DNA of 34,430 nt from an uncultured Planctomycetales bacterium (GCA_964487475.1 CAZAPM010000002.1:124001-158430); one strand, 5' to 3'. Positions 1 to 25,351 are shown, counted from the stretch's first letter. Numbers and translations are program-made. Notes: generated by a model from the letters alone, not told the origin.

Positions 1-1017
1 GTTCCGTTTCACTCCCGGGACGCAGCCTGCCGCAGAGGATATCGCAGGAGCGGGGACCGGGGTAAGTTATCAGGTGATCTTCGCGACTCCCGAGCTCGAA
101 GCCGCCTTCCGGAAATGGGAGGGGAGCACCGCATACAAGATATTGGNNNNNNNNNNNNNNNNNNNNNNNNNNNNNNNNNNNNNNNNNNNNNNNNNNNNNN
201 NNNNNNNNNNNNNNNNNNNNNNNNNNNNNNNNNNNNNNNNNNNNNNGAGCAGGTGGATAGGCTGACCGCGCAGGTGCGGCGCTACGCCGGCAATCCCGTG
301 GTCGCGGTGTTCCTGGCCCGGTGGACCTTTTCCCGCGAGGAGTCGCTCGATATCATGAATGATATGGTCCAGGTGTACACCCTGGCGCAGCTGTGGCAAC
401 TCAAAGATGTCCAAACGCAGTTTCGGGAAGCTGCGCCATTTGCCGTGCAGCAGCTTACCCGTATGCTGGAGGTGCTCAACCGGTCAATAGAAATGGCCGG
501 ACGCGGTCAGGGTATCCCTCTTAAATACGAGGCGTATGCCGGAAACCCCGGCTTGACCCGGTTCGCCGACATTGACCAGATCCTGGGGGATATGCCAGGC
601 TCGCAACCCGGCACTCCGCAGGATGGTCCTGGCCCGCAGGGGGGTGTCCCCTCTGGGGGCGTCCCCTTTAGGGGCGTCCCTGAGGTAGGGGGCGTTGATT
701 TTACCGCGATGCCGATGGTGGTCCAGGCGCTGGAGCGGGTACGCGCCCTGCCCGCCGTTTCTCCCGATCCCGCGCTTTCTTCCGAGGATGTGTCTCTGGA
801 ACAGGAACAGCTCTCCGGACTTATCCGCGCGGGCATCCAGGTCTCCGCGCAGCGCGCCGCAGAGCACGTGCAGCAGGTCATGGGGATGCCGTCCATGCGC
901 CCGGCTGCGCTGCAGCTTTTGCGCAGCATCCTGCGGCAGGACGAGCGGCTGTCCCGCCCCAGCGACCAGCGGCTCAAGGACCTTTTCGTGATCTTCGAAT
1001 CATCCGCCCTTCCGTAA
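1..1017 (+). CDS. C-terminal part of a large hypothetical protein (5' end outside the window, interrupted by an assembly gap)
   Basis: Frame 2 is open from 2 to 146 (FRFTPGTQ...AYKIL). The frame from 247 is open to TAA at 1015-1017. The C-terminal region GGVDFTAMPMVVQ...LKDLFVIFES follows a Gly/Pro-rich linker. Continuity across the gap is assumed. Confidence 0.65.
   Translation, partial: VPFHSRDAACRRGYRRSGDRGKLSGDLRDSRARSRLPEMGGEHRIQDIXXXXXXXXXXXXXXXXXXXXXXXXXXXXXXXXXXEQVDRLTAQVRRYAGNPVVAVFLARWTFSREESLDIMNDMVQVYTLAQLWQLKDVQTQFREAAPFAVQQLTRMLEVLNRSIEMAGRGQGIPLKYEAYAGNPGLTRFADIDQILGDMPGSQPGTPQDGPGPQGGVPSGGVPFRGVPEVGGVDFTAMPMVVQALERVRALPAVSPDPALSSEDVSLEQEQLSGLIRAGIQVSAQRAAEHVQQVMGMPSMRPAALQLLRSILRQDERLSRPSDQRLKDLFVIFESSALP
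147..246. other. Scaffold gap (100 N)
   Basis: Run of exactly 100 N, a typical placeholder for a gap of unknown size. Confidence 0.95.
640..681 (+). repeat. Palindromic 15-bp-unit repeat, copy 1 (in frame in ORF1, encodes GGVPSGGVPFRGVP)
   Basis: ggggtgtcccctctgggggcgtcccctttaggggcgtccct matches the copies at 21393, 21535, 24552 and 25173. Confidence 0.9.
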
Positions 1018-1024
1018 TTGCCCG

Positions 1025-1053
1025 TTGGCAAATCACCCTGCCGGTAGTATACT
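1025..1053 (+). promoter_or_regulatory. Sigma70-type promoter for the 1080+ operon
   Basis: TTGGCA (1025-1030), 17-bp spacer, TATACT (1048-1053); RBS AGGAGG at 1067-1072. Confidence 0.75.
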
Positions 1054-1079
1054 AGTATGAATCAATAGGAGGTACACAC

Positions 1080-1508
1080 ATGGAAAACATACCCGGAGCA
1101 ACTCCGTCTTCTGAGGCAGCGCCTCAGGCAGCGTCCCCGGCAGCGCCGCAGCCGGCAGCACCCGTTCCCGCCGTCCCGGTCTCGCCTACGGTGACGATCG
1201 AGGATTTCAAGAAGTTCGCGTTCCGCGTGGGAGAGATCAAGGAAGTGAAGGACCATCCCAATGCGGACAAACTCTATGTCCTGACCATCGACCTCGGAGG
1301 CAGGACCAAGCAGCTGGTCGCCGGGATCAAGCCTTCGTACCAGAAGGAAGAGCTGGTCGGAAAGCAGGTGGTGGTGGTGGATAACCTGCAGCCGGCGATG
1401 CTGCGGGGCGTGGAAAGCCAGGGGATGGTGCTGGCAGCCTCCGATGACGCCGGCATTGCCGTCGTCAGCCCCCTGCGCGCGGTCAAACTGGGAAGTACCG
1501 TTAAGTGA
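1080..1508 (+). CDS. Stand-alone tRNA-binding OB-fold protein (MetRS C-terminal/Trbp111/CsaA family) with a Pro/Ala-rich N-terminus
   Basis: TIEDFKK..FRVGEI..VKDHPNADKLYVLTIDLG...QLVAGI...NLQPAMLRGVESQGMVLAA is the tRNA_bind signature; strong RBS. Confidence 0.9.
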   Translation: MENIPGATPSSEAAPQAASPAAPQPAAPVPAVPVSPTVTIEDFKKFAFRVGEIKEVKDHPNADKLYVLTIDLGGRTKQLVAGIKPSYQKEELVGKQVVVVDNLQPAMLRGVESQGMVLAASDDAGIAVVSPLRAVKLGSTVK

Positions 1509-2005
1509 TCCCGCAGCGTATTCCCGGCCGCACCTGCATGTCCTGCAAGGGATGCTGCCGTTTCCTGGAAAAGGAAACGATGTGGGCGGTGCGGTTGTGC
1601 AAGGACGAACCGCTGGCAGCCATGGCCGCCGGCGAGATGGTGATCCCTCCGTCGGTGATCACCAAGGATTTCTGCCTGAGGCTCGAGCCTTCCCGTAAGG
1701 GCGCCGGATATGTCTGCGCGTGCCTGGAGGAGGTCTCGGGAGCCTGCCAGGTGTACCGCAACCGGCCGCTGGAGTGCCAGCTTTATCCGTTCCTGCTCTG
1801 CGCCGAGGGAAAGAAGAGATTCCTGGGGTACGATCCGCACTGTCCGTATATGCACGAGCACGAGGGGACCGGGATACTCAAGGAGTATGCCGCCGCGATC
1901 GTCGAGGCGCTGAAGACCCCGCAGATGCGCCTCCGGCTCAAGGAGAATCCGCACCTGTTCCAGGAGTATAAGGGTGTGGTGGAAGTCGCGGTCATCGACG
2001 TATGA
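1505..2005 (+). CDS. YkgJ/FliB-like cysteine-cluster (Zn or Fe-S) protein
   Basis: CMSCKGCC ... CACL...CQVYRNRPLECQLYPF...CP pattern; GTGA overlap with the upstream stop. Confidence 0.85.
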   Translation: MIPQRIPGRTCMSCKGCCRFLEKETMWAVRLCKDEPLAAMAAGEMVIPPSVITKDFCLRLEPSRKGAGYVCACLEEVSGACQVYRNRPLECQLYPFLLCAEGKKRFLGYDPHCPYMHEHEGTGILKEYAAAIVEALKTPQMRLRLKENPHLFQEYKGVVEVAVIDV

Positions 2006-2898
2006 TCCTCGAGGAATTGCAGCCGGCGCATAAGAGCCTGTTCGAGCGCCTGCGCGGGGAAACGCCCCCGTGCTTAAGCGCGTATGTGTTCGCCAACCTC
2101 TACGCCTGGAAACCGTTGTACAGGCTGCGTGTCGCGGCGCAGGAGGGCGTATTCGCGGTGTTCATGCAGGATGACGCCGGGATGTTCATGCCGCTTCCTC
2201 CGCTGGGAGAAGGGGTGACCCGGGAGACCGTCAGCCGGTGCTTCGAGCTGATGACCGCGCAGAGCAGGCATGCCGCCGTGGTGCGTATCGAGAATATCGC
2301 ACCGGAGCAGGCCGCCCAATATGAATCCTGGGGCTGGCTCCTGCGGGAAAAGCCCGGGGATTACGTTTGTTCGAGAGATGCCCTGGCGCAGCTGGCGGGT
2401 ACGGCGTATAAGCATAAACGGGCGGACGTCAACCGGTTCCTGCGGGAACATGATCCTCTGGTGCGGGAGCTTTCCCCGGAGGATGCGGCAGCGTGCCTGG
2501 AGCTTTACGGGCGGTGGATGCGGGAGCGCGCGGCAGCGCATCCGGATGCGCTGTACCGGGGGATGCTCGAGGATAACCGCAAGGCGCTGGAAACGGTGTT
2601 CGGCGAATATGCCGGGCTGGGAGTGCGCGGGATCGCGGTGGAGCTCGCCGGAAAACTGCAGGCGTTCACCTTAGGCGGAGAGATCTCCCGCGAGGCGTTC
2701 TGCGTGATCTTCGAAGTGGCGAACCTTAAGGTCAGGGGTTTGAGCCAGTTTATTTTCCGGGAGTTCGCCTCCCGGCTTGAAGAATACCGTTATCTTAACC
2801 TCATGGATGATTCCGGGCTGGAGAACTTATCCCGGGTAAAGCGGTCATACAATCCGGAGTTCATCTCCCGGGCATTCATTGCCACCATACGCGCATAA
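2002..2898 (+). CDS. DUF2156 / aminoacyl-phosphatidylglycerol synthase C-terminal-like GNAT protein (soluble)
   Basis: DYV....LAQLAGTAYKHKRADVNRF, FEVAN....GLSQFI, YLNLMDDSGLENLSRVKRSYNP; ATGA coupling. Confidence 0.85.
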   Translation: MILEELQPAHKSLFERLRGETPPCLSAYVFANLYAWKPLYRLRVAAQEGVFAVFMQDDAGMFMPLPPLGEGVTRETVSRCFELMTAQSRHAAVVRIENIAPEQAAQYESWGWLLREKPGDYVCSRDALAQLAGTAYKHKRADVNRFLREHDPLVRELSPEDAAACLELYGRWMRERAAAHPDALYRGMLEDNRKALETVFGEYAGLGVRGIAVELAGKLQAFTLGGEISREAFCVIFEVANLKVRGLSQFIFREFASRLEEYRYLNLMDDSGLENLSRVKRSYNPEFISRAFIATIRA

Positions 2899-2901
2899 GG
2901 G

Positions 2902-3480
2902 ATGGGAATAGACGAAACGGAATTCGTGATCTTCGATACGGAGACCACCGGGCTTTCTCCGGCGGCAGGAGACAGGGTGGTGGAAGTGGCGGCATTGCGT
3001 TCGCTCGGCGGCCGGGTTTCGGCGTCCTTCGAGAGCCTGATCCAGACCGGGGTGCCTGTCTCCGAAGGTGCGTTCCGGGTGAATCAGATCTCTCCGCAGA
3101 TGCTGGAGGATGCGCCCGTAGCGCATGAGGTCTGGCCGCGGTTCCTGGAGTTTTCCCGCAGCGCAGTCTGGTGCACGTATAACGCGCCGTTTGACATGGG
3201 GTTCCTTTGCCACGAGCTTTCCCTGCTCGGCAGGACGCTGCCCGAGGGGGTGGCGGTGATCGATGTGCTGCGCATGGCCCGGGCTTTGATGCCCGGCCTT
3301 TCCCGTTACGCGTTATGGTGCGTGGCCGAGGCCAACGGCATGCAGCTGGCCCAGCGTCACCGGGCTATGGCCGACGTGGAGATGACGCATGAGGTGTTCC
3401 GCAGCCTTTTGGAGATCGCCCGCGCCAAAGGGGTCACGGATATCGAGGAGCTGGTGAAATGTTTCGGGTATATCGCATGA
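2902..3480 (+). CDS. DEDDh 3'-5' exonuclease (DnaQ/PolC-exo family)
   Basis: Exo I FDTETTG, Exo II YNAPFD, Exo III HRAMAD. Confidence 0.92.
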   Translation: MGIDETEFVIFDTETTGLSPAAGDRVVEVAALRSLGGRVSASFESLIQTGVPVSEGAFRVNQISPQMLEDAPVAHEVWPRFLEFSRSAVWCTYNAPFDMGFLCHELSLLGRTLPEGVAVIDVLRMARALMPGLSRYALWCVAEANGMQLAQRHRAMADVEMTHEVFRSLLEIARAKGVTDIEELVKCFGYIA

Positions 3481-5849
3481 CCCGGGGTGCGTTTTCAGGG
3501 TGGATGCTCGTGGCCGGGCTGGTCCTGGCCGGAGGATGCCATCCCCGGGATGATGTTGCCCGCGCCCGGGAAGATCTGCGTCAGGGGCAGGAGTATTTGC
3601 GGCGCTCCCAGGCCCTTTTCGAAGCCGGAGTGGCCCGCGATGCCGGTTCGCAGGAGAGCCTCCTCGGGCTGGGGGATGTGTTATACGCGCAAGGGAAGTT
3701 TTCCGAGGCGGCAGCGCAGTATGCCCGGGTGGAGACGGAGGCGTCTTTCAAGAAACAGGGGATGGCCCGCTACCACGCCGGGGATTTTTCCGCGGCCACC
3801 GAGGCGTTCGGCCGCATCGCCCGGAGGGACGATCAGGCCAACTATTATTTCGGTTTGAGTTGCGAGAAGCTCAATCTGTTTGAAAAGGCGCTGGCCGCCT
3901 ACGCGCAGATCGACGGGGGTGAGTTCGGGCCTCAGGCCCGGGCGCGCCAGCACGCCATCGAGCGGCAGCGCAGCGCCGTGCGCATAGAAACGCTCGACCC
4001 TTTTGCCGCTAAGCTCATCGCCTCCGCCCCTGCGGACGCGAAGTACCCGCAGGCGGGAGCGCTGATACTCTGGTGCGACGAATCGATGGAGCTGACCCGG
4101 GATAACCGGTTGATCACCACCACGCACTACCTGGTCAAGGTCCTCAACGACCGGGGCAAGCAGGATTTTTCCGAGGCCCAGCTGGAATACGACTCGACGG
4201 ACGAGAAGGTGACGCTGGAGTTTGCCCGCACCATCAAGCCCGATGGCACGGTCGCGGAAGTGGGGGAGCGTCACATCCGCGATGTCTCCAAGTACCTCAA
4301 TTTTCCTCTCTACAGCAATGCCCGGGTAAGGATCATCTCCTTCCCTGAGGTGGCGCAGGGGTCGGTGCTGGAGTATAAAGCGGTCACGGAGCGCCGTCAG
4401 CTGGTCAACGGCAAGGATGTCTCCCTCGCGTATCCTCTCCGCAGCCGGGAGCCGGTGCTGGACGCCCGTTTTTCCCTGACCGTGCCCCGGGGCCGCGAAC
4501 TCAAGTTCTCATACCTTAACCGGGAATTAGCCGATGCGGGGATGATGATGGAGCCTCTGGTCGAGGAGACGGCGCAGACCAAGGTGTACCGCTGGAAATA
4601 CCTGGATATCCCCCAGATCGTGCCGGAACCGCATATGCCTCCCCTCGCGGAGGTCAACCCTACGGTCATCTTTTCCTCCTTCCGGGATTGGCAGGAGCTG
4701 TATGCCTGGTGGTGGCCGCTGGCAAAAGACAAGGTCCGCGCGGATGCGGATATCTCCGCGAAGGTTTCCGCGCTTACCGCGGGTAAACCTACGCCGGAGG
4801 AAAAGGCCCGGGCCCTGTATGAGTTCTGCGCGCAGCATATCCGCTACGTGGCGGTGGAGTACGGAGACGCAGGCTACGAACCGCATGAGGCGTCTTTGGT
4901 GTTCCGGAACAAATACGGAGATTGCAAGGATCAGGCCGTGCTTTTAGCCGCCATGCTGCAGGAGGCGGGGTTGGAAGCCGCCCTGGTGCTTATCCCGACC
5001 AGGGAGATGCCCCAGATGCGGGAGGCGTTCCCCTCGATGCTGTTCAATCATTGTATCGCCGCGGTCAGGCTGGAGGGCAACTGGGTTTACCTCGATCCGA
5101 CCGCGGAGACGTGCGCATTCGGCGATCTTCCCGAGGGGGATCAGGACCGCACCGTCCTGGTGTGCACGGGCAAGGGATATTCCATCGGCCGCACTCCCTT
5201 ATACGAGGCGCCGCATAATCTTCTCGAGCACCTGACCGATATCTCCATTTTGCCGGAGGGGGGTATTGAAGCCTCCCGCAAGGTCTTTACGCGGGGCGGG
5301 GTGGCGCAGGGGCAGCGCTACTGGCTGCGGTATTCCCAGCCGGAGAAGATCACCCATACCCTTGAGGAAAAAGTGCAGGGGATGACGGTGGGCGGCGCGC
5401 TGGAGGGCTACGAAGTGCTCGGGGCCGAAACGCTCGTCGAGCCGGTGGAGCTCCGTTACCGTTTCAAGGGGCCGGAGTATCTCCTGCGCGCGGGGAAACT
5501 GCGCATCGTCCCGGAACTCGTGGATATGGACCTGAACCTGGTGGCTGCCGAGACGCGCCGCTTCCCCCTGGACTTGGGGACTCCGCTTGTGCAGCGCTCC
5601 CAGGTGACCTTATCCTTACCTTCGGGAATGCGCGTGGAGTATCTGCCGGAAGGGGTCAGGGAGGACACGCCGTGGTATTCCTGCGCGGTTTCCTGCCGCG
5701 CCGAAGGGGCGAAGATCGTCTGCGAACAGGAGCTGCGCTATAAGGTCAGGCAGATCTCCGTGACGGATTATCCCAAGTTCAAGCAGTCTTATGAAGAGAC
5801 CGCGCGCCGGATCAAGCCGCGCATCGTATTGGAGAAGACAGATGGATAA
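3477..5849 (+). CDS. Lipoprotein with TPR repeats, DUF3857 domain and transglutaminase-like core
   Basis: Start moved to ATG 3477 (ATGA overlap). Lipobox LAGGC, TPR-like helices, catalytic-triad motifs YGDCKD / FNHCI / YLDPT. Confidence 0.88.
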   Translation: MTRGAFSGWMLVAGLVLAGGCHPRDDVARAREDLRQGQEYLRRSQALFEAGVARDAGSQESLLGLGDVLYAQGKFSEAAAQYARVETEASFKKQGMARYHAGDFSAATEAFGRIARRDDQANYYFGLSCEKLNLFEKALAAYAQIDGGEFGPQARARQHAIERQRSAVRIETLDPFAAKLIASAPADAKYPQAGALILWCDESMELTRDNRLITTTHYLVKVLNDRGKQDFSEAQLEYDSTDEKVTLEFARTIKPDGTVAEVGERHIRDVSKYLNFPLYSNARVRIISFPEVAQGSVLEYKAVTERRQLVNGKDVSLAYPLRSREPVLDARFSLTVPRGRELKFSYLNRELADAGMMMEPLVEETAQTKVYRWKYLDIPQIVPEPHMPPLAEVNPTVIFSSFRDWQELYAWWWPLAKDKVRADADISAKVSALTAGKPTPEEKARALYEFCAQHIRYVAVEYGDAGYEPHEASLVFRNKYGDCKDQAVLLAAMLQEAGLEAALVLIPTREMPQMREAFPSMLFNHCIAAVRLEGNWVYLDPTAETCAFGDLPEGDQDRTVLVCTGKGYSIGRTPLYEAPHNLLEHLTDISILPEGGIEASRKVFTRGGVAQGQRYWLRYSQPEKITHTLEEKVQGMTVGGALEGYEVLGAETLVEPVELRYRFKGPEYLLRAGKLRIVPELVDMDLNLVAAETRRFPLDLGTPLVQRSQVTLSLPSGMRVEYLPEGVREDTPWYSCAVSCRAEGAKIVCEQELRYKVRQISVTDYPKFKQSYEETARRIKPRIVLEKTDG

Positions 5850-7692
5850 TGCCAGCGCCATGGGAGCGGAGCAGCGCAAATACATTCGTCTTAATTCGGT
5901 CTTCCCTATCCAGTGGAGGCTGATGGATGATGCCGGGCACTATGTGAACCCTTCCCCGCACGTGGGGTTCACCAGCAACGTGAGCAAGGGCGGTTTGTGC
6001 CTGTGCGTGCGCAACATCTCGGTGGAAGCGGCGCAGCTGCTGTATGCAGGCAAGGGGATGTTCTCCCTGGATATCGAAATGCCCTTCTCTCCGCAGCCTA
6101 TCGCGGCGCTGGCCCGGGTGGCATGGATGCGGCATCTTCCGCAGGAGCCGGATAAATATTACGTCGGCCTGGAGTATGCACAGATCGACCCGCGGCACGA
6201 GAGGATGATCCTGCGTTTCGCGCGGATGAAGGTGTGGTGGCCTAAGATCACGGTCGCGGCGTTCCTGCTGCTGGTGCTGGCGTTCGGGGTGAATTATCTT
6301 CATACCGAGACGCTGATGCGCCAGAACCGGGAATTGGTCGGGCAGCTGGCGCGCACCATGGCGCAATCCAACGCCGCGCGGCAGCAGCTGGATGAGGCGG
6401 CGTCGAAGCGCGAATCCCTGCAAAAGGAACTGGCGGCATTGCAGGGGGACGATATCGCACAGCAGAAGCAGGAGCTCGAGGCATTGATCCTGCAGGCCCA
6501 GGAAAAAGAAGCCGTGGCCGCCGGAGAGCTGACCCGTATCAACGAACAGAAAGCCCAGGTGGAAAAAGCCGCCTTCGAGAAGATGTACCGCTGGCTGGCC
6601 GTGCATCAGAACCCCCGCACCGGACTGGTGATGAGCTTTGAGGGGGATGCGGCGGTGTCCGACTGGGGGTTCATCTACGATCAATCTCTGGCAGCCCAGG
6701 CGTACCTTTTGCTGGGCGAAAAAGAGCGCGCGGCGAAAGTGCTGGAGTTCTTCCTTTCCCGGGCAGAGCGCAGCCAGGGGCTTTTCTACAATGCCTATTA
6801 TGTGAAGGACGGTACTCCCGCCGAGTACACCGTGCACTGCGGACCGAACCTCTGGCTGGGGATCGCCGCGCTGCAGTATTACCAGAGCAGCCGGGATACG
6901 CGTTACCTTGCGCTGGCGCAGCAGGTCGCCGAGGGGATCCGGCGGATACAGGCGCAGGATGCGGAGGGCGGGCTGGCGGGCGGGCCGGGCGTCGAGTGGT
7001 ATTCCACCGAGCATAATCTCGACGGATATGCCTTTTTCGATATGCTTTTCAAGGTAAGCGGCCAGCCGGAGTACGCGCAAAGCCGGGACCTGATCCTGGC
7101 CTGGCTGGTGGCGCATGCGTATGACAAGGCCGAGGTCCCCATCCGGCGGGGCAAGGGGGATTCCACCATCGCGACGGATACCTATGCCTGGTCCATCGCC
7201 GCCATCGGCCCGCGCAAGCTCAAAGAGCTGGGCATGGACCCGGACGAGATCATGATCTTCGCCCGGCAGCAGTGCGGGATCGAGGTGGAGTATCGCCGGC
7301 CCGACGGAGAAACGGTCAGGGTCAGAGGGTTCGATTTCGCGCCGGGCATGAACATCGCCCGCGGAGGCGTCGTCTCCAGCGAATGGACCGCGCAGATGGT
7401 GCTTTCCTTCAAGCTGATGGAGGAGTATCACCGGGAAGAGGGCCGGTATGCGGCCGCGGATGAATACCGCCGCCTGCAGACCGAGCATCTGCTTTCCCTG
7501 GTGAAGATGATCATCTCCAGCCCTTCCCCCAGCGGGCAGGGCGCCGGCTGCCTGCCGTATGCGACGCAGGAGGCCGTGGATACCGGGCACGGGTGGAGCA
7601 CCCCCAGGGGCAGCTCCACCGGGTCCATCGCCGGTACCGCCTACACGCTTTTCGCGTATCACGGGTACAATCCTCTTGCCTGGAAGGAATGA
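5842..7692 (+). CDS. PilZ domain + TM helix + coiled coil + six-hairpin glycosidase-like domain
   Basis: Start moved to ATG 5842. EQRKYIR (RxxxR) and NVSKGG ([D/N]xSxxG) PilZ motifs; TM ITVAAFLLLVLAFGVNY; Q/E-rich coiled coil; C-terminal (alpha/alpha)6-like region with IYDQSL, STEHNLD, SSEWTAQM. Confidence 0.75.
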   Translation: MDNASAMGAEQRKYIRLNSVFPIQWRLMDDAGHYVNPSPHVGFTSNVSKGGLCLCVRNISVEAAQLLYAGKGMFSLDIEMPFSPQPIAALARVAWMRHLPQEPDKYYVGLEYAQIDPRHERMILRFARMKVWWPKITVAAFLLLVLAFGVNYLHTETLMRQNRELVGQLARTMAQSNAARQQLDEAASKRESLQKELAALQGDDIAQQKQELEALILQAQEKEAVAAGELTRINEQKAQVEKAAFEKMYRWLAVHQNPRTGLVMSFEGDAAVSDWGFIYDQSLAAQAYLLLGEKERAAKVLEFFLSRAERSQGLFYNAYYVKDGTPAEYTVHCGPNLWLGIAALQYYQSSRDTRYLALAQQVAEGIRRIQAQDAEGGLAGGPGVEWYSTEHNLDGYAFFDMLFKVSGQPEYAQSRDLILAWLVAHAYDKAEVPIRRGKGDSTIATDTYAWSIAAIGPRKLKELGMDPDEIMIFARQQCGIEVEYRRPDGETVRVRGFDFAPGMNIARGGVVSSEWTAQMVLSFKLMEEYHREEGRYAAADEYRRLQTEHLLSLVKMIISSPSPSGQGAGCLPYATQEAVDTGHGWSTPRGSSTGSIAGTAYTLFAYHGYNPLAWKE

Positions 7693-7720
7693 GCGGAGGT
7701 ACAATCAAAGGGAGGGAGTG

Positions 7721-8407: not shown

Positions 8408-8409
8408 CC

Positions 8410-9531: not shown

Positions 9532-9546
9532 GATAGAGGAGCGGAA

Positions 9547-10512: not shown

Positions 10513-10515
10513 GTC

Positions 10516-11127: not shown

Positions 11128-11131
11128 GGAG

Positions 11132-15207: not shown

Positions 15208-15218
15208 TATGGTATAAT
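15189..15218 (+). promoter_or_regulatory. Putative rex promoter (extended -10)
   Basis: TTAACA (15189-15194), 18-bp spacer, TG-G-TATAAT (15210-15218), 8 nt before the rex ATG. Confidence 0.55.
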
Positions 15219-15226
15219 TCTAGCCG

Positions 15227-15886: not shown

Positions 15887-15898
15887 CGCACAAAGTCC

Positions 15899-15929
15899 TT
15901 GACAAATCAAGCGTTATGTGATAAATAAT
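15899..15929 (+). promoter_or_regulatory. Putative promoter of the ATP-grasp/aminomutase operon
   Basis: Perfect TTGACA at 15899-15904 followed by an AT-rich -10-like region (tgtgataaataat); the exact -10 is ambiguous. Confidence 0.5.
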
Positions 15930-16013
15930 CATATTCGTAAGGCAAATTTGGCGTTTTATATAAGGTAAACAAGGAGAACCTCAGTAAAGTTGAAAAACCT
16001 AAGGAAACGGAAC

Positions 16014-16045
16014 AGGCTCAAGAACTTCGGAGCCTTTTTTTATTT
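16014..16045 (+). terminator. Intrinsic terminator-like hairpin in the leader, 3 nt before the downstream ATG
   Basis: AGGCTC-aagaacttcg-GAGCCT followed by TTTTTTATTT. Confidence 0.6.
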
Positions 16046-16048
16046 ACT

Positions 16049-17038: not shown

Positions 17039-17047
17039 GAGGCGCTT

Positions 17048-18058
17048 ATGGAAGTAGCGGTGACGTACAACCTAAAAGAGAAGGACGAGACAAAACCTCC
17101 GGATTATTTCTCGGAGTTCGACTCCGAAGAGACGATCAACGCGATCGTCGGCGCCCTGCGCGGCAAAGGCTACAAAGTCTCCCCCGTTAACGTCAACAAC
17201 TCCGACCTCTTCTCCTATTTCCGCAAGAACCGCGTGGACATGGTCTTCAATATCGCGGAAGGAAAGCACGGCAAGTTCCGCGAATCAGAAATACCCGCCA
17301 TACTCGATTATCTCGATATCCCTTACACCGGCTCCAGTACGTTCTCTCTGGCGCTGGCCCTCAATAAGGCCTTCACCAAGAAGATACTTATCGCCGAAGG
17401 GATCCCTACGCCGCGGTATCAGGTGTTCTCCAGCGGGGAGGAGGCACTGGACGAGGGGCTGAAGTTCCCCCTGATCGCCAAGCCCAACTGCGAAGGTTCC
17501 GCCAAGGGGATCACCAAGAACTGCGTGGTCAGGGACGAGGCGGGACTGCGCGCGATCGTGAAGGAGCTCCTCGAGAAATACTGCCAGGAGGTCCTGGTGG
17601 AGGAGTTCATCGAAGGCAAGGAGCTTACCGTCGGGATCCTCGAGAACGGCAAGGCCTCGGTCCTGCCGATCCTGGAGATAGATTTTTCCACCGCCGCCAA
17701 GAGCGGCGAGTTCTTTTACAGCTGGCATATGAAGGAGTACCAGGGGGACCACTCCCGTGGCACGGTGCCTACCTTCCATTGTCCGGCAAGGCTCGACCCG
17801 AAGACCGAAGCGCTGGTGAAGGAAACGGCGTTGCAGACCCACCGCGCGGTCGGCTGTTATGATATATCACGGACGGATATCCGCCTGAATGCCGAGGGGA
17901 TCCCTTATGTGCTGGAGATCAATCCGCTGCCCGGGCTTGATCCCAAGGAGTCGAATTTCCCCCAGATGGCGTATGCCGCCGGAATGAAATACGAGGATAT
18001 TATCGAATCCATTCTTTTGAGCGCCCTACAAAGGAGAAAACTACACATTGGAGAATAA
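17048..18058 (+). CDS. D-Ala-D-Ala-ligase-like ATP-grasp enzyme 2 (paralogue)
   Basis: DMVFNIAEG..FRESEIP, KPNCEGSAKG, LVEEFIEGKELTV, RTDIR, LEINPLPG. Confidence 0.88.
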   Translation: MEVAVTYNLKEKDETKPPDYFSEFDSEETINAIVGALRGKGYKVSPVNVNNSDLFSYFRKNRVDMVFNIAEGKHGKFRESEIPAILDYLDIPYTGSSTFSLALALNKAFTKKILIAEGIPTPRYQVFSSGEEALDEGLKFPLIAKPNCEGSAKGITKNCVVRDEAGLRAIVKELLEKYCQEVLVEEFIEGKELTVGILENGKASVLPILEIDFSTAAKSGEFFYSWHMKEYQGDHSRGTVPTFHCPARLDPKTEALVKETALQTHRAVGCYDISRTDIRLNAEGIPYVLEINPLPGLDPKESNFPQMAYAAGMKYEDIIESILLSALQRRKLHIGE

Positions 18059-19250
18059 CAACGTAGCCGTCGAGAACCAGAAGGCAGTAGTGCAGGAAGC
18101 GCCTGTAGTGCAGCCTCGTTCGTCACGGAAACCCCGCGATTACCAGCAGATACCGTTGTATAAGGACGTCAATCCTCTGGACTGGGAGGACTGGCATTGG
18201 CAGCTGAAGCACCGTATCCGCACCAAGGATGAGCTGGCGCAGGTGATCAAGCTTTCTCCCCAGGAAGAAGCGGGTTTGAAGAAGGCCAACGGGATGCTTT
18301 CCCTGGCCATTACGCCGTATTGGGCGACGTTGTTCGACCCGGAAGACCCGACCTGCCCGATCCGCCGTCAGGCCGTGCCGGTCTCCGAAGAGTTCGTGAT
18401 CTCCCCTCATGAGATGACCGATCCTCTGGCGGAGGATCGCGACTCCCCGGCCCCGAATCTGGTGCACCGTTATCCGGACCGGGTGCTGTTGCTGGCGACC
18501 GACCATTGCGCCATGTACTGCCGCCACTGCACCAGGCGCCGCCTGGTGGGCGACCACGAGAAGGAGATCTCCAACCCCAACGCGACGGGCCGCTTCGATG
18601 CCGCGATCGAGTACATCCGCGCCAACCGGAAGATCCGCGACGTGCTTATCTCCGGCGGGGACCCTTTGACCCTCGAGGACGAGACGCTCGACGACCTGCT
18701 GGGCAAGCTGCGTTCCATCTCCCACGTGGAAGTGGTGCGCATCGGAAGCCGCGTGCCGGTGACCCTGCCGCAGCGTATCACCGAAAAACTGGTGACCATG
18801 CTGCATAAGTACCATCCGCTTTTGATGAGCATACATTTCAATCATCCCAAGGAGCTTACCAAGCGCTGCCGCAACGCCTGCGACATGCTCTCCGACGCGG
18901 GTATCCCCCTGGGCAGCCAGACCGTGCTCCTGAAGGGCATCAACGACCGCCCGTACGTGATGAAGAAGCTCATGCACGACCTGCTCCAGGCGAGGGTGAG
19001 GCCGTACTATATCTACCAGTGCGACCCGGTCAAGGGCACGCAGCATTTCCGTACGCCCGTGTCCGTGGGCATCAACATCATGGAGAAGCTGCGGGGGCAC
19101 ACCTCGGGGTATGCCGTGCCGACATATGTTATTGACGGACCTGGCGGGGGTGGTAAAATACCTGTAGGCCCCACCTACATGCTTTCGCAGTCCAAGGGCA
19201 AATATGTGCTGCGCAATTACAAGGGCAAAATATATACGTATCTTGAATAA
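18048..19250 (+). CDS. kamA: KamA-family radical-SAM/PLP 2,3-aminomutase (lysine 2,3-aminomutase-like)
   Basis: TTG start; WEDWHWQL, LVHRYPDRVL, CAMYCRHCTRRR, SGGDPL, HFNHPKE, YQCD, DGPGGGGKIP. Confidence 0.9.
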   Translation: MENNNVAVENQKAVVQEAPVVQPRSSRKPRDYQQIPLYKDVNPLDWEDWHWQLKHRIRTKDELAQVIKLSPQEEAGLKKANGMLSLAITPYWATLFDPEDPTCPIRRQAVPVSEEFVISPHEMTDPLAEDRDSPAPNLVHRYPDRVLLLATDHCAMYCRHCTRRRLVGDHEKEISNPNATGRFDAAIEYIRANRKIRDVLISGGDPLTLEDETLDDLLGKLRSISHVEVVRIGSRVPVTLPQRITEKLVTMLHKYHPLLMSIHFNHPKELTKRCRNACDMLSDAGIPLGSQTVLLKGINDRPYVMKKLMHDLLQARVRPYYIYQCDPVKGTQHFRTPVSVGINIMEKLRGHTSGYAVPTYVIDGPGGGGKIPVGPTYMLSQSKGKYVLRNYKGKIYTYLE

Positions 19251-19279
19251 GAGACTCCCGGCTTTGTTCTTTTGCACAC

Positions 19280-19313
19280 AATAAGGATGCCACGGTAACG
19301 GGGCATCCTTATT
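19280..19313 (+). terminator. Strong hairpin after the aminomutase (probable terminator)
   Basis: AATAAGGATGCC-aCG-GTAA-CGg-GGCATCCTTATT: 12-bp perfect stem with GNRA loop; weak U tail. Confidence 0.6.
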
Positions 19314-19436
19314 CATTTATCCGTTTCCTTCGTTAACAATGGTCTGAGACCCGATGTGTCGCACCTCGGCTTATTGGATTGCCGAGTGCGTCCCCTTCTG
19401 GGACGGTGTTTCGCCTTTTGTGAAAGGAGCCGCGAG

Positions 19437-21395
19437 ATGGATGTGCATAACAAACGGAGTTTTATTCTCTTGGGCCACGCCCAGTGCGGCAAGACCACCC
19501 TGGCGGAGAGCATGCTTTTCGCCTGCAAAGCGGTGACGCGCAAGGGAACCACTGCGGAAGGCACTACGGTCAGCGATTACAGCTTCGACGAGATCGAGCA
19601 TAAAAGCTCGATCAACGCCAGTGTGATGTTCGCCGATTTCCATAACACGCGGCTGCAGTTCATCGATGCGCCCGGGTACGCGGACTTTTACGGGGAAGTG
19701 ATCTCGGGGGTGCGGGCCGTGGATTCCGGGCTGATCGTGGTGGACGGATCATCCGGGGTGCAGGTCGGCACCGAGCGCGCCTGGCAGATGCTGGAAGAGC
19801 AGGGGATGCCCTGCATGTTCTTTATCAATAAGTGCGACAAGGAAGGCGCGGATTGCAAGCAGGTCTTGACCGAGCTTAAGGCCACCTTCTCCAAGAACTG
19901 CGTCATGATCGAGTCCCTCGAGGACCCGGACCTGATGGAGGCGATCGCGGAAAGCGACGACAACCTCCTGCAGAAGTACCTGGAAGTGCTTTCCCTTTCC
20001 CAGGATGAGATCAAGAACGGCCTGACCAGGGCGGTGGTGGCGCGCAAGCTCTTTCCGGTAGTGGCCGGCTCGGCCCTGACGGATAAGGGGATCGTCGCGC
20101 TGCTGGAGGATATCGTCGAGTACCTGCCTGACCCTTCAGCGAGGCGCTGTATCAAGGCCACGCATCCGGCAAAACCCGGGGAGACCCTCGAGGTGCCTTG
20201 CTGCCAGGAGAATTTTTTCGCGGCGTTCGTCTTCAAGAACATCGTCGATCCCTACGTGGGGCAGTTGACGCTGCTGCGGGTTTTTTCGGGCAACCTGCCT
20301 TCGAACACCGGCTTTTACAACGTGACCAAGGGAGTGCGGGAGCGTATCGGCCAGGTGTACCTGCTGCAGGGCAAGGAGCAGCGGGCGGTGGATGCGGCAG
20401 GCTGCGGGGATATCGTGGCCATTGCCAAGCTTAAAGAGACGGTGACCGGGGATTCCCTGGCGGATGAGAAGCACCCCGTGTTGTTCGCGCCGATGGTGTT
20501 CCCCGAGCCGGCGATATCCGCGTCGGTCAAGCCTAAGTCCCGAGAGGACGAGGAGAAGATCGCGACCGCGTTGCATAAGCTGGTGGCGGAGGATATGACC
20601 TGCCGGGTGATCCACGATCCGCAGACCAAGGAGCTGGTGATCTCGGGGCTGGGGGACCAGCATTTAGGCGTGCTGGTAGGGCGGCTGCGGAAAAGATTCC
20701 ATGTGGAGATCGAACTGGGAACCCCGAAGGTCTCCTATAAGGAGACGGTGACCCGTTCGGCGAAGGTGCAGGGCAAGTTCAAGCGCCAGTCCGGCGGCCG
20801 CGGGCAGTACGGCGACTGCTGGATCGAGATCGAGCCTCTGGAGCGCGGCGGCGGGTTCGAGTTCGTGGATAAGATCGTAGGCGGGGCCATCCCCAGGAAT
20901 TTCATTCCTTCGGTGGAGAAGGGGGTGCGCCAGGCGATGCTCGAGGGCGCGATCGCGGGGTATCCGATCGTGGACATTAGGGTGCGGCTGGTGGACGGAA
21001 GTTACCATGACGTGGATTCCTCCGACATGGCGTTCCAGATCGCCGGGTCGATGGCGCTGCGCAAGGCGGTGGCGGCGGCGTCCCCCATTCTGCTGGAGCC
21101 GGTGATGGATGTGGACGTGAACATCCCCGAGGAGTGCTTAGGGGGGATCACCGGGGATATGAACTCCCGGCGGGGAAGGATGATCGGGATGGAGCAGAAG
21201 GGCAAGACCCAGCAGCTTAAGTGCACGGCGCCCTTATCCGAGATGTTCACTTACGCCAATGACCTGCGGTCGATGACCGGAGGGCGCGGGCAGTACCTGA
21301 TGCGGTTCTCGCATTACGAGCCGGTGCCGCACAAGATCGCGGCGGGGATCATCCAGCACTACGAAGCCAACAAGAAACAAGAAGTCGAAGTCTAG
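19437..21395 (+). CDS. fusA: Elongation factor G paralogue (EF-G2/FusA-like)
   Basis: Start moved to ATG 19437 (AAGGAG at 19424-19429). GHAQCGKTT, DAPG, NKCD, KRQSGGRGQYG, GSYHDVDSSDMAF, LRSMTGGRG. Not located in the str operon. Confidence 0.9.
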   Translation: MDVHNKRSFILLGHAQCGKTTLAESMLFACKAVTRKGTTAEGTTVSDYSFDEIEHKSSINASVMFADFHNTRLQFIDAPGYADFYGEVISGVRAVDSGLIVVDGSSGVQVGTERAWQMLEEQGMPCMFFINKCDKEGADCKQVLTELKATFSKNCVMIESLEDPDLMEAIAESDDNLLQKYLEVLSLSQDEIKNGLTRAVVARKLFPVVAGSALTDKGIVALLEDIVEYLPDPSARRCIKATHPAKPGETLEVPCCQENFFAAFVFKNIVDPYVGQLTLLRVFSGNLPSNTGFYNVTKGVRERIGQVYLLQGKEQRAVDAAGCGDIVAIAKLKETVTGDSLADEKHPVLFAPMVFPEPAISASVKPKSREDEEKIATALHKLVAEDMTCRVIHDPQTKELVISGLGDQHLGVLVGRLRKRFHVEIELGTPKVSYKETVTRSAKVQGKFKRQSGGRGQYGDCWIEIEPLERGGGFEFVDKIVGGAIPRNFIPSVEKGVRQAMLEGAIAGYPIVDIRVRLVDGSYHDVDSSDMAFQIAGSMALRKAVAAASPILLEPVMDVDVNIPEECLGGITGDMNSRRGRMIGMEQKGKTQQLKCTAPLSEMFTYANDLRSMTGGRGQYLMRFSHYEPVPHKIAAGIIQHYEANKKQEVEV

Positions 21396-21436
21396 GGACG
21401 CTCTTAAAGGGGACGCCCCTGAAGGGGACACCCCTT
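21393..21436 (-). repeat. Palindromic 15-bp-unit repeat, copy 2 (supplies the TAG stop of the EF-G paralogue)
   Basis: Reverse complement reads aaggggtgtccccttcaggggcgtcccctttaagagcgtcccta. Confidence 0.92.
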
Positions 21437-21534
21437 GTTATATTTTATGCGATAAAGGTTGGCTTATTCTGATCGTAGATCTGGTTATAGAGTAGTATCG
21501 TATCCAGCAACTCGTTTCAACTATCAAAACAGTG

Positions 21535-21594
21535 GTAGGGGTGTCCCCTTCAGGGGCGTCCCCAGCAGGAGCGTCCCCATTAGGGGCGTCCCTA
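21535..21594 (+). repeat. Palindromic 15-bp-unit repeat, copy 3 (four units)
   Basis: gtaggggtgtccccttcaggggcgtccccagcaggagcgtccccattaggggcgtcccta. Confidence 0.92.
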
Positions 21595-21607
21595 AGAAAG
21601 GAAACTC

Positions 21608-22309
21608 GTGAAGATCTGTGCGTATGGAATTGCCGAAATCACCCCGGGGAAGAAGAACATCAAGGATCCCCGTTTGGATCAGGTCGATAAATTCGTAAAG
21701 GCCAAGAAGAAGACCTATGTGCAGGTGGACGTAGTGGCTGAGGCGGATGCCTTGTTGTCGGATGCGGTGCTTGCCGCCAAGTCCAGCCTGGCGGACCTGG
21801 TGTTGCATGATCTCGATTTCGTGGAGACGCGCCTTTCGCGCAACCCCGGCCCGGAAGAGAAGGAGATGCTGGATCAGTTCAAGGCCGTGCTCGAAAAGGA
21901 GCAGTGTATCAATACCCTGACCTTGACCGAGGCCCAGAAGGCCGGTATGGCCAGTTACAATACTTTGACCAACAGGCCCGTCATTTTGATCGAAGCCGCG
22001 GAGCTCGAGAACCCCGACGAGCTTTTCGCCCGCGCCCTGCGCGAAGCCGGATACATCAGCTTTTTCACTGCCGGCGAAAAAGAGACCCGCGCCTGGCTGA
22101 TCAAGAAAGGCACTCCTGCGGTCGAGGCGGCAGGCGCGATCCATTCGGATATCCAGAAGGGTTTCATCCGCGCCGAGATCATCAGCCTGGAGGATTATCT
22201 GGCATGCGGCGGGGAGACCGGCGCGAAGCAGGCCAATAAGATGCGCCTCGAGGGAAAAGAGTACGTGATGCAGGATTGCGATCTCGTCAACTTCCGCTTC
22301 AATAAATAA
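21608..22309 (+). CDS. Short YchF-like protein (C-terminal TGS/DUF933 domain, G-domain largely deleted)
   Basis: GTG start after AAGGA. DPRLD, DLDFVETRL, TLTNRP, ISFFTAGEKETRAW, AAGAIHSDIQKGFIRAE, EGKEYVMQDCDLVNFRFN. No P-loop. Confidence 0.85.
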   Translation: MKICAYGIAEITPGKKNIKDPRLDQVDKFVKAKKKTYVQVDVVAEADALLSDAVLAAKSSLADLVLHDLDFVETRLSRNPGPEEKEMLDQFKAVLEKEQCINTLTLTEAQKAGMASYNTLTNRPVILIEAAELENPDELFARALREAGYISFFTAGEKETRAWLIKKGTPAVEAAGAIHSDIQKGFIRAEIISLEDYLACGGETGAKQANKMRLEGKEYVMQDCDLVNFRFNK

Positions 22310-22320
22310 GAGCATCCCCT

Positions 22321-23889
22321 ATGATAAAAATCAAGCGTGCATTGATCAGCGTATCGGACAAGACGGGCATCGCGGAGTTCGCCAAAGAGCTCGCCGCCAT
22401 GGGCGTCGAGATCCTTTCCACCGGCGGCACAGCCAAGCTCTTGCGCGAACAATCCATCCCCGTCAAAGAGGTCTCCGCGTATACCGGATTCCCTGAGATG
22501 CTCGACGGTCGGGTCAAGACCTTGCATCCTATGATCCACGGCGGGCTGCTTGCCCTGCGCGACAACCCCGATCACATGCAGCAGATCCAGAAACACGGGA
22601 TCGGCTTGATCGATATGGTAGTGGTCAACCTCTATCCGTTCGAGCGGACCATCCAGAAGCCCGGAGTCTCTATCGAGGAGGCGATCGAGAACATCGACAT
22701 CGGAGGCCCTTCGATGCTGCGCTCCGCGGCCAAGAACCACGCCTCAGTGGCGGTCATCTGCAATCCGGCGCATTACTCCAAGGTGATCAAGGAGATGAAG
22801 GCCAGCAGCGGCAGCGTGTCCGTGCGGACCATGCAGGAGTTGGGGATCGAGGTCTACCGCGTCACCTCCCAGTACGACCAGGCTATCCATACCTACCTTA
22901 ACAGCCGCGTGCTCGAGGGGGAGACCCCCGCCGCCGCGCGCCTGCCTAAGGAGATCACCCTGCATTTCACCAAGCTTCAGGACCTGCGCTACGGGGAAAA
23001 TCCTCATCAGGCTGCCGCCTGGTATCGCGATTCATCCTCCGTCAGCGGCCTGGCCGAGATGAAGCAGCTCTGGGGCAAAGAGCTCTCGTTCAATAATATC
23101 CTCGACGTCAACTCCGCGGTGGCGCTGGTGCGGGAATTCTCCCTTCCGGCGGTGGCGTTCATCAAGCACAACAACCCGTGCGGCTGCGCCGAGAACAAAT
23201 CCCTGCTGAAAGCTTTTCAGGATGCCTGGCAGTGCGACACTCTTTCCGCGTTTGGCGGGATCGTCGCCATCAACCGGAAGGTCGATGCCGCGCTGGCCAA
23301 GCGCATCGCCAAGTGCGGGTTCCTCGAGTGCATCGTCTGCCCCGAGTTCTCCTTCGACGCGCTGGAGGTCCTGAAGGAAAAGAAGAACGTGCGCCTGCTC
23401 GAGCTTCCTTCCCTGGCGGTCGCGCAAAAACCCGGATTCGACTACAAGAAGGTCGCCGGAGGGCTGCTGCTGCAGGACGAGGATTCCCAGACGTACCTCG
23501 AGTCCAGCCTTAAAGTAGTGACCAGGAAGAAACCCACCAAGGCGCAGATGGCATCGCTTCTTTTCGCCTGGAAGGTGGCCAAGCACGTCAAGTCTAACGC
23601 TATCGTGCTGGCGCAGGGCACGAAGACCGTCGGGATTGGCGCCGGGCAGATGTCGCGGGTGGATTCGGTGTTCATCTCCACGAAGAAGGCGGGTAGATCA
23701 GGAACGGGCGCCGTGCTGGCTTCCGACGCGTTCTTCCCGAAAGAGGACGCCGTATCCCTGGCCGCGAAGTATAAGGTCAAGGCGATCATCCAGCCGGGCG
23801 GCTCCATCGCCGACGAGCTGATCATCAAAACCGCGGATAAACATAAGATCCCCATGGTTTTGACCGGAATGCGCCATTTCCGGCACTAA
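22321..23889 (+). CDS. purH: Bifunctional AICAR transformylase/IMP cyclohydrolase
   Basis: RALISVSDKTG, STGGTA, GRVKTLHP, LRYGENPHQ, KHNNPCG, ASDAFFP, MRHFRH. Confidence 0.98.
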   Translation: MIKIKRALISVSDKTGIAEFAKELAAMGVEILSTGGTAKLLREQSIPVKEVSAYTGFPEMLDGRVKTLHPMIHGGLLALRDNPDHMQQIQKHGIGLIDMVVVNLYPFERTIQKPGVSIEEAIENIDIGGPSMLRSAAKNHASVAVICNPAHYSKVIKEMKASSGSVSVRTMQELGIEVYRVTSQYDQAIHTYLNSRVLEGETPAAARLPKEITLHFTKLQDLRYGENPHQAAAWYRDSSSVSGLAEMKQLWGKELSFNNILDVNSAVALVREFSLPAVAFIKHNNPCGCAENKSLLKAFQDAWQCDTLSAFGGIVAINRKVDAALAKRIAKCGFLECIVCPEFSFDALEVLKEKKNVRLLELPSLAVAQKPGFDYKKVAGGLLLQDEDSQTYLESSLKVVTRKKPTKAQMASLLFAWKVAKHVKSNAIVLAQGTKTVGIGAGQMSRVDSVFISTKKAGRSGTGAVLASDAFFPKEDAVSLAAKYKVKAIIQPGGSIADELIIKTADKHKIPMVLTGMRHFRH

Positions 23890-23902
23890 TATCCGCACGG
23901 GA

Positions 23903-25351
23903 ATGCGATATTCCGACGCGCTCTCCTATCTGAATTCATTCATCAATTACGAGAAGCTCAACCGCTGGCCGTATCGCCGTTCGTTAAAGCTCGACCGTTT
24001 CAGGGCTTTTCTGAATTCACTCGGGGACCCGCACAAGCAGCTGCCGATCGTGCACGTGGCCGGCTCCAAAGGAAAAGGCTCGACGTGCGCGTACATCGCG
24101 TACATGCTGCGTGCCGCCGGATACCGGGCGGGGCTTTATACGTCCCCGCATCTTTCGGATGTCCGGGAGCGGATCAGGATCCTGGAGCCCGGATCGCCGG
24201 GGCGGGACGATGATTTCGAAGGGATGATCAGCCGCCGCGCGTTGGCGGCGGAGGTGGCAAGGCTTAAGCCGGCGGTCGATAGATTCAACCGTACTTCGAG
24301 GTTCGGCGCGCTTTCCTTTTTTGAGGTGTATACGGCGGTGGCGTTCTCGTATTTTGCGCGGCAGAAGGTGGAGTGTTGCGTGCTGGAGACCGGGTTAGGG
24401 GGCAGGCTCGATGCGACCAATGTCTGTGATTCTCTGGTGGCGGTGATCACTCCTATCAGCCTGGAGCATACGGATAAGCTGGGTAAGACGATCCCCGCGA
24501 TCGCGAAGGAGAAGGCGGGGATCATCAAGACCTTCGGCCAATCCGTCGTCCTGTCCCCTCAAGGAGCGTCCCCATTAGGGACGCCCCTAAAGGGGACACC
24601 CCTTGCGCAAAAAGAGATCGAGAAAAGGTGTAAAGCATACTCTTGCCGCCTCACCGTGGTGCAGCCGTCTGCCGCCCGCGGCCTCCCGCGCCTGCAGCTT
24701 CCCGGAGCTCACCAGCGTCACAACGCCGCAACCGCGGTCGCAGCGGTCAAGCAGCTTGCAGAATACGGTTTTCGAGTCCCGGCCGCTGCCATGCGCCGCG
24801 GCCTTGCCGGCTGCCGCTGGCCGGGCCGCTGCGAGATCGTGCACCGGCGGCCGACCGTCATCCTTGACGGCTGCCAGAATCGCGCTTCTGCGGCGGCGCT
24901 GGCTGCTGCCGTGCGCGCCCTGCTGCACGCACCGCAACGCCTCATCCTCATTCTAGGCGCTTCGCAGGATAAGGATATCCGCGGCATGTGCGAGGAGCTG
25001 CTTCCTCTCGCGCACGCCGCTATTGCCACGGCCGCAGATAATCCCCGCGCCGCAGCGCCGGCAGCGATCGCCGCTCACCTCCGCATGGCACCCGGCCTAA
25101 AAGGAAGTGGCAGGTGCTTTGCTTCCTGCAGGGCACCCGGCCCAAAAGGAAGTGGCCGGTGCTCTTCTTCCTGTAGGGGTGTCCCCTTCAGGGGCGTCCC
25201 CTTTAGGGGCGTCCCTATAAGCTGCGCGGGGTCGGTGCGCGAAGCCCTGCGACAGGCCATGCGCCTCGCCTCACCCCGCGACGCGATCCTCGTCGCCGGC
25301 TCACTTTTCCTCGTCGCCGAAGCGCGGAGGTACCTCAAACATGCGTATTAA
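23903..25351 (+). CDS. folC: Folylpolyglutamate/dihydrofolate synthase with in-frame repeat insertions
   Basis: HVAGSKGKGST, YTSPHL..VRERI, LETGLGGRLDATN, IAKEKAGII, WPGRCE, AGSLFLV. Confidence 0.93.
   Translation: MRYSDALSYLNSFINYEKLNRWPYRRSLKLDRFRAFLNSLGDPHKQLPIVHVAGSKGKGSTCAYIAYMLRAAGYRAGLYTSPHLSDVRERIRILEPGSPGRDDDFEGMISRRALAAEVARLKPAVDRFNRTSRFGALSFFEVYTAVAFSYFARQKVECCVLETGLGGRLDATNVCDSLVAVITPISLEHTDKLGKTIPAIAKEKAGIIKTFGQSVVLSPQGASPLGTPLKGTPLAQKEIEKRCKAYSCRLTVVQPSAARGLPRLQLPGAHQRHNAATAVAAVKQLAEYGFRVPAAAMRRGLAGCRWPGRCEIVHRRPTVILDGCQNRASAAALAAAVRALLHAPQRLILILGASQDKDIRGMCEELLPLAHAAIATAADNPRAAAPAAIAAHLRMAPGLKGSGRCFASCRAPGPKGSGRCSSSCRGVPFRGVPFRGVPISCAGSVREALRQAMRLASPRDAILVAGSLFLVAEARRYLKHAY
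24552..24604. repeat. Palindromic 15-bp-unit repeat, copy 4 (two opposed partial arrays, in frame in folC: SPQGASPLGTPLKGTPL)
   Basis: tgtcccctcaaggagcgtccccat|tagggacgcccctaaaggggacacccctt; shares aggagcgtccccattaggg exactly with copy 3. Confidence 0.88.
25087..25176 (+). repeat. 45-bp tandem duplication (2 copies), in frame in folC
   Basis: ggcacccggcctaaaaggaagtggcaggtgctttgcttcctgcag / ggcacccggcccaaaaggaagtggccggtgctcttcttcctgtag; peptides APGLKGSGRCFASCR / APGPKGSGRCSSSCR. Confidence 0.9.
25173..25217 (+). repeat. Palindromic 15-bp-unit repeat, copy 5 (consensus-like, in frame in folC: RGVPFRGVPFRGVP)
   Basis: gtaggggtgtccccttcaggggcgtcccctttaggggcgtcccta. Confidence 0.93.

Follow-up and report, generated by a model that had tools for sequence, protein, structure and literature searches.

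Here we describe a family of short palindromic repeats in a 34,430-nucleotide stretch of DNA (GCA_964487475.1 CAZAPM010000002.1:124001-158430; the whole stretch is called the window), deposited as coming from an uncultured Planctomycetales bacterium, and link it to a transposase gene of the same genome. We consider it probable that the repeat arrays are dispersed terminal inverted repeats of a subclass 2.1 Y1/HUH gene, which together with its ends forms a TIRtron, and that the enzyme moves single-stranded hairpins, probably during DNA uptake, when the gene is predicted to be switched on. This reading draws on what was observed of the identity of the ends, the HUH and tyrosine motifs, three forms of the repeat, its absence from orthologues, the loss of host codons and an upstream motif shared with other genes; the mobility of the repeats is what we infer from these sequence comparisons. 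The genome (G000) is a metagenome assembly of 1.87 Mb in 36 contigs, 95% complete and with N gaps, and the names of its homologues make Omnitrophota the likely lineage.

A search of the genome with the PF01797 profile identified two Y1 genes, here named C8 and C16. The C8 gene (C8:96041-96631, 196 amino acids) lies between inverted arrays at C8:95939-95979 and C8:96713-96753, and the inverted ends of the unit match over 74 bp with 90.5% identity. Inward of each array is a hairpin of 45 bp, module B, in whole or in part. The array at 25175..25217 of the window is identical to the right end of the C8 unit at 43 of 43 bases and is likewise accompanied by module B, of which two copies precede it. 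An earlier, sequence-only reading of the window had suggested looking for a motif-flanked transposase of RAYT/IS200-like or IS630 type. A Y1 gene flanked by the motif is present (G000 C8:95.9-96.8 kb), and no IS630 or IS4/IS5-type transposase domain was found in G000. The same reading had described the window as free of transposases, and none was detected among the 13 window open reading frames (ORFs) scanned.

The second gene, C16, is a second TIRtron (L001:1352-2011 in G000, 159 amino acids) with perfect inverted ends of 35 bp and a dispersed family that belongs to it. Its protein is 38% identical to the C8 protein and its ends differ from the C8 ends; the HUH motif and the catalytic tyrosine are kept in both. 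When one mismatch is allowed, the C16 repeat family counts 42 ends; a GTAG foot is present in 8 of 34 exact ends. The gene caller missed the C16 gene and chose the wrong strand at ORF1, the first reading frame of the window.

The motifs of the C8 protein (NHFH, FQ, YIERNP and WSS) are those of the subclass 2.1 row in Table 1 of Quentin 2018 (PMC6006769), an assignment read by motif and not by the profiles of that study. Quentin 2018 equates this subclass with the TIRYTs of Di Nocera 2013 (PMC3733652), the transposases of TIRtrons, and it also corresponds to RAYT group 1 of Bertels 2017 (PMC5581495). On the gene strand the sequence of the inner unit is GGGGACAC, which fits the GGGGWSAS motif of Di Nocera. 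A structure model of the protein (predicted local distance difference test score, pLDDT, 82) has E. coli TnpA-REP 4ER8 as its best match (E 1.9e-8); a single-sequence fold with pLDDT 45 was not used. On these protein features, the C8 protein fits a subclass 2.1 TIRYT, of a variant without the C-terminal helix-turn-helix (HTH), and not a RAYT of the GTAG-tagged repetitive extragenic palindromes (REPs).

Within the window the core pattern GGGGYGTCCC has 13 exact matches (mean 0.40, maximum 2, in 100 shuffles), and the five arrays that had been claimed are all in place. As units they are not five, since two are the arms of one inverted doublet, another is a dimer, and a pair of B modules belongs with the last. 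The first array (640..682, plus strand) has three units and ends in CCCTG. ORF1 reads it in frame (GGVPSGGVPFRGVP) within a variable linker; directly after it comes the C-terminal GG[IV]D segment conserved in a family of long proteins. The doublet occupies 21393-21594 and folds entire as a single long hairpin (z = -8.7). Its left arm (21393..21435, minus strand) has three units, and the outer TAG is the stop codon of an EF-G-family gene (19356-21395); its right arm (21537..21594, plus strand) has four units and is intergenic, 13 bp upstream of an ORF with a YchF C-terminal domain. The spacer between them (21436..21536) is AT-rich (64% AT vs 48% in intergenic DNA) and unrelated to other spacers. 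The remaining copies lie in folC (23903..25351, plus strand), the host gene for folylpolyglutamate/dihydrofolate synthase, which has two in-frame inserts. One is a tail-to-tail dimer (24550..24603) made of a decayed plus arm, a 5-nt spacer and a two-unit minus arm (24578-24603), with a hairpin z of -5.9. The other consists of the two B modules (25088..25174, plus strand) and the three-unit array at 25175..25217 (plus strand; RGVPFRGVPFRGVP). The claim that three arrays are in frame in coding sequence, once in ORF1 and twice in FolC, is thereby borne out. Rfam has 0 matches in the window.

That the arrays are artefacts of assembly is extremely unlikely. Contigs of this metagenome assembly, which has N gaps, often break within arrays, but run X1, possibly the source sample, has a contig across 24483-25204 that shows no difference, and contigs of X4 (another study) and X6 reach into arrays, one of them from a variant with 16 differences in 307 bases. 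A variant about 5% divergent is present in X4. This check covered the FolC dimer and the array ends and left out the array at 640. In addition, the copies differ among themselves and related repeats are present in other genomes.

The family is not confined to the window. There are 93 exact matches to GGGGYGTCCC genome-wide, which form 43 arrays of at least two units (two in 17 arrays, three in 22, four in 4) at about 29 multi-hit loci. The sequence-only reading had thought that there may be hundreds of copies, which is wrong: at 0.023 arrays per kb the genome average is about six times below the 0.145 per kb of the window. The census is pattern-based and may miss decayed copies. The polarity that it had described holds throughout, with TGT in the first unit of 42 of 43 arrays and CGT in 73 of 73 later units, the last unit being fixed by the search pattern itself. 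The arrays take three forms: singles, ends-out doublets and tail-to-tail dimers. There are 12 ends-out pairs, nine of which have AT-rich spacers of 66-139 bp. Five of these nine spacers are 93-94 bp long, yet only one pair among them is clearly homologous. The five tail-to-tail dimers are 57 bp long with a 5-nt spacer, and all five are in called genes in the same kind of frame, one of them (C3) near an uncertain start codon. Searches with the exact repeat patterns against a wider set of genome and metagenome contigs, from which the own genome may be left out, gave 0 matches.

The inner flanks of doublets (for example window 21436-21460, L147, L158 and L159) carry a weak motif at a fixed distance inside the ends, AWTTRA near +9 to +15 here and TAACT-N15-AGTTA in relatives; this motif may be a protein-binding site. 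Sites for IHF were sought in the spacers by consensus and rejected (3 of 8 spacers vs 1.4 expected, p = 0.15).

The feet of the arrays bear on how the repeats might move. TA follows 29 of 43 outer ends, TA...TA bounds five of the 12 ends-out pairs, and the doublets are of the size of a MITE (a miniature transposable element with inverted repeats). These features would suit a MITE of the classical kind, mobilised by a DDE transposase of IS630/Tc1 or IS5 type that duplicates TA. Because TA is its own reverse complement, however, an inverted foot gives the same picture. Two of the 12 pairs are bounded by CA...TA, and none has a 3- or 4-bp duplication. In relatives the feet are other and inverted: ACG in 11 of 13 element ends in G029, including both ends around that genome's own Y1 gene, and CTG(G) in 11 of 12 dispersed ends in G058. 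Singles and tail-to-tail dimers are also common, and neither DDE_3 (PF13358) nor DDE_Tnp_1 (PF01609) has a match in the 95% complete genome. The TA at the ends is probably not a target duplication, and a MITE origin is very improbable.

Membership in a canonical GTAG-tagged REP family, mobilised by a RAYT of group 2 or 3, is unlikely. The doublets resemble REPINs: their spacers are unrelated to one another but have a preferred length (five of nine long ones are 93-94 bp), like those of Pseudomonas, and the nearest fold of the protein is TnpA-REP. The outer TAG also supplies stop codons, as GTAG REPs do (described by Di Nocera 2013, PMC3733652): among TA ends outside genes, 7 of 22 form the TAG stop of a gene, vs a background of 8.7% (p = 0.002). 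On the other hand the outer foot is TTAG at 23 of 43 ends and GTAG at none. The GTAG tag reported from the sequence alone precedes only two of the 43 arrays, at the inner end. The motifs of the protein match subclass 2.1, a subclass in which Quentin 2018 (PMC6006769) found no REPs. Membership is largely refuted, although the family may work in the same way as GTAG REPs. The idea of a lineage-specific, REP/RPE-like mobile repeat with a Y1 transposase was right, given the motif-flanked Y1 gene and orthologues that are without the peptides; the enzyme is a TIRYT and not a GTAG-REP RAYT.

Repeat peptides are found in nine called genes and in ORF1. The genes encode FolC (twice), an AddB-like nuclease, dCTP deaminase, an Fe-S protein, PriA, HydE, a long EF-G and two N-terminal cases (a C12 aminotransferase-like protein and the C3 case) that may lie upstream of the true start and so be extragenic. 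Both FolC inserts are absent from all 119 homologues, an outcome of the orthologue alignment that had been suggested. At site 1 there are 26 amino acids here vs 15 in 119 of 119 homologues (net +11), and also in 19 of 19 relatives. At site 2 there are 87 vs 46 in 89 of 119, the two B modules and the array giving a net +41. In one homologue site 2 holds a different long insert, unrelated to this one. ORF1 was less informative: its relatives align only over the C-terminal ~110 amino acids, 0 of 9 has the repeat peptide, and the linker is too variable to define an empty site.

FolC site 2 is nearly a pure insertion, with 130 bp of visible element vs 123 bp net. Dimers span about 19 codons, and the net gain is +11 at FolC site 1 and +5 in dCTP deaminase (12 of 12 homologues), where the conserved DK.G is lost. 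The gain is +7 to +10 in the Fe-S protein (12 homologues) and about +14 against the mode in the AddB-like protein (12). The visible element exceeds the net gain in four genes, and therefore host codons have been lost, 5-14 of them at each of four in-frame sites. The loss may have occurred at insertion or later, two histories that distant relatives do not separate. An in-frame presence in unrelated proteins combined with absence from orthologues, the criterion by which Rickettsia palindromic elements are recognised, is what we find here.

Related genomes place these ends in a wider family. Y1 homologues are present in 43 of 60 relatives and the exact repeat in 0 of 60. The C8 protein belongs to a six-member clade (support 100/99, one truncated row having been left out of the tree) whose ends carry two GGGAC-type boxes 15 bp apart, and the other Y1 clades, among the ends listed and judged by eye, have a tandem period of 23 bp. 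Two-unit copies number 2-16 per genome in five of five genomes tested; some are doublets and two are in 1000-amino-acid frames. A looser pattern of the repeat matches in 9 of 300 genomes across the phylum. One genome of another order (G083 C2:171448-172284) has 18 copies of a related two-unit repeat, and two of these are inverted about 800 bp apart, as in a TIRtron. An upstream neighbour is common to the C16 clade in four genomes, and the C8 clade shares none; this pattern fits vertical inheritance of the C16 gene and movement of the C8 gene.

The sequence-only reading had taken the 15-bp period as what lets the repeat invade ORFs, an idea that finds no support here. Four of the six frames of the 43-mer are open, and 4344 of 5000 shuffles had four or more open, so the openness is unremarkable because it is expected from base composition. 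The nearest transposase homologues have ends with the same spacing, which is therefore inherited end architecture. Expansion to three or four units is seen only in this genome among the genomes seen. The gain or loss of a 15-bp unit is frame-neutral.

The clade pattern also bears on whether the arrays are a host element, a terminator or a protein-binding site that slippage and gene conversion have multiplied, with the Y1 gene merely caught between two copies. Many copies are at the 3' ends of genes and fold as hairpins, and mobility has not been observed. Against this, the type of end tracks the transposase clade across genera, the exact repeat is missing from all 60 relatives, and copies lie within unrelated enzymes, a poor place for a terminator. 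We regard a host element as very improbable.

A bipartite motif, GT[TG]AGA-N15-CGTC[TA], precedes the Y1 genes in 23 of 29 cases in relatives, always with a 15-bp spacer. In G000 it is found in 7 of 1671 upstream regions (0.1 in shuffles) and has nine exact matches genome-wide, at both Y1 genes, recA-recX, spoVG-(kinase)-dprA, comEA-comEC, yifB/comM and three uncharacterised genes. In G018, a second genus, eight of eight matches precede orthologues of the same set, and two of these are Y1 genes. Position and spacing suggest that the motif is a promoter. A promoter likely common to Y1 and DNA-uptake or recombination genes makes it likely, in turn, that the repeats spread during DNA uptake. Expression of E. 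coli yafM is raised under induced competence (Sinha 2009, cited in Bertels 2017, PMC5581495). The three uncharacterised genes (G000 C10:29244, C10:81097 and C4:132906) encode secreted-looking proteins. Orthologues of the first two also carry the motif in G018, and these two are therefore candidate new competence genes.

In E. coli, TnpA-REP cuts single-stranded REP DNA at sites to either side of the hairpin and joins it again in vitro (PMC8266576). By analogy, the C8 enzyme would bind a folded end, nick single-stranded DNA near the outer foot and rejoin it to other DNA, acting when single-stranded DNA is abundant. The joining of two outer ends would give the 57-bp tail-to-tail dimers, and the capture of flanking DNA would give doublets with variable spacers. 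Illegitimate or RecA-assisted integration would replace some host DNA without a target duplication. Selection would then retain intergenic copies and, within genes, only in-frame copies in loops and linkers, and slippage would probably shift the unit number by 15 bp with the frame intact.

Several observations weigh against a TIRtron origin of this kind or against parts of it. No movement was observed: among the joints listed, in contigs of six runs, none skips an element. No empty site was seen at the DNA level, there being no close relative; identity to the nearest FolC does not exceed 49% (45% in the metagenome scan), and replacement at insertion looks the same as a deletion that came later. 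Only half of module B is present at the left end of the C8 unit, and given this the C8 gene itself may be immobile. For the C8 protein, Pfam at E <= 1 gives Y1_Tnp and nothing else, hence no C-terminal HTH, and the protein scores 63.9 bits against the NCBIfam RAYT model NF047646, below the cut-off of 80 that C16 passes with 86. In one member of the C8 clade (L030) the upstream copy is direct and not inverted. The doublet spacers are unlike the leader of the C8 gene, and a promoter-like match is present in only 4 of 11 doublets (uncorrected p < 0.05), the window doublet not among them. The upstream motif has one unrelated match in G029 and none in G043.

A possible extension, about which we are rather doubtful, is that Omnitrophota TIRYTs belong to the host competence regulon. 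On DNA uptake they would nick and join single-stranded DNA at the repeats, and RecA-assisted integration would overwrite host segments, writing new loops into housekeeping proteins. If true, this would supply a regulatory context and a replacement mechanism for a class of domesticated HUH transposases. For the host role of RAYT-like enzymes and the spread of REP-type repeats, this genome, with two enzymes that each have their own short repeat, is a compact test system. The junction-like dimers predict the point at which ends are joined, and the conserved motif predicts the time of expression.

Further features were recorded at or near the copies. ORF1 (window 1-1017) is open at the window start and spans a 100-N gap (147-246); its C-terminal ~110-amino-acid segment is common to very long proteins of relatives. 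The ORF next to the doublet (window 21608-22309, 233 amino acids) matches the YchF C-terminal domain only (residues 150-232), with no match to the GTPase domain. Module B occurs four times in frame in the linker of dnaX (G000 C21:3111-3346, L254). The long EF-G (G000 C13:40232-43348, L252; also L256-L270) is a second EF-G fused to an N-terminal hydrophobic segment, a coiled coil and a Pro/Glu linker. In most of 60 family genomes it is one frame of 1000-1100 amino acids, and because most relatives share that frame, a fusion of a coiled-coil gene to EF-G brought about by the element at this site was rejected. Another genome (G347) has its own different repeat twice in the same EF-G linker.

Several parts of this picture are familiar from known systems. 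In-frame palindromic inserts, REPIN-like doublets and stop-codon overlap are already in print, and in-frame repeats in proteins are by themselves ordinary. Intragenic REPs and Rickettsia palindromic elements are likewise in-frame palindromic inserts of ~20-40 amino acids in unrelated proteins (PMC3733652), some twice per gene and several in replication or repair genes (here PriA, the AddB-like protein and DnaX). CGTC/RPE repeats are without a linked transposase in PMC3733652, and here the cognate gene is present and intact. With REPs, REPINs or BIMEs and their RAYTs the family shares inverted doublets with variable spacers of preferred length (PMC3337134, PMC8266576), two dimer orientations, stop codons supplied by the ends, one enzyme per repeat family and the same fold. 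It differs in the absence of the GTAG foot, in its tens rather than hundreds of copies and in the protein subclass. IS200/IS605 elements have the same HUH/Y1 fold and no expected target duplication; here there are two divergent single-copy genes, Y..NP instead of Y..Q, inverted ends and no match to TnpB in G000.

The closest system is the TIRtron and its TIRYT, and the repeats are a real TIRtron-derived family. Both have a Y1 gene between terminal inverted repeats, the GGGGWSAS motif and the subclass 2.1 protein motifs (PMC3733652, PMC6006769), and dispersed copies in moderate numbers that occur singly, as dimers and in groups (PMC3733652). Cleavage or joining of its repeat is reported for no TIRYT in the two works that use the term. 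A C-terminal HTH is present in all 20 described TIRYTs of subclass 2.1 and variable in subgroup 2.1.2 (PMC6006769); the C8 protein has none. Repeats of this kind in Omnitrophota are not reported in the literature searched, and the terms "palindrom" and "competence" are absent from a 2026 Omnitrophota genome preprint. Tandem units, host-codon replacement and a competence-type motif were likewise not found in that literature; the supplementary material of both Di Nocera 2013 and Quentin 2018 may be relevant here, and Fig. 9 and Additional files 3-5 of the former may list similar ends. The present family is set apart from described TIRtrons by ends of 2-4 tandem 15-bp units with a 45-bp module, by about ten copies that lie in frame, with host codons lost, and by an upstream motif in common with competence genes.

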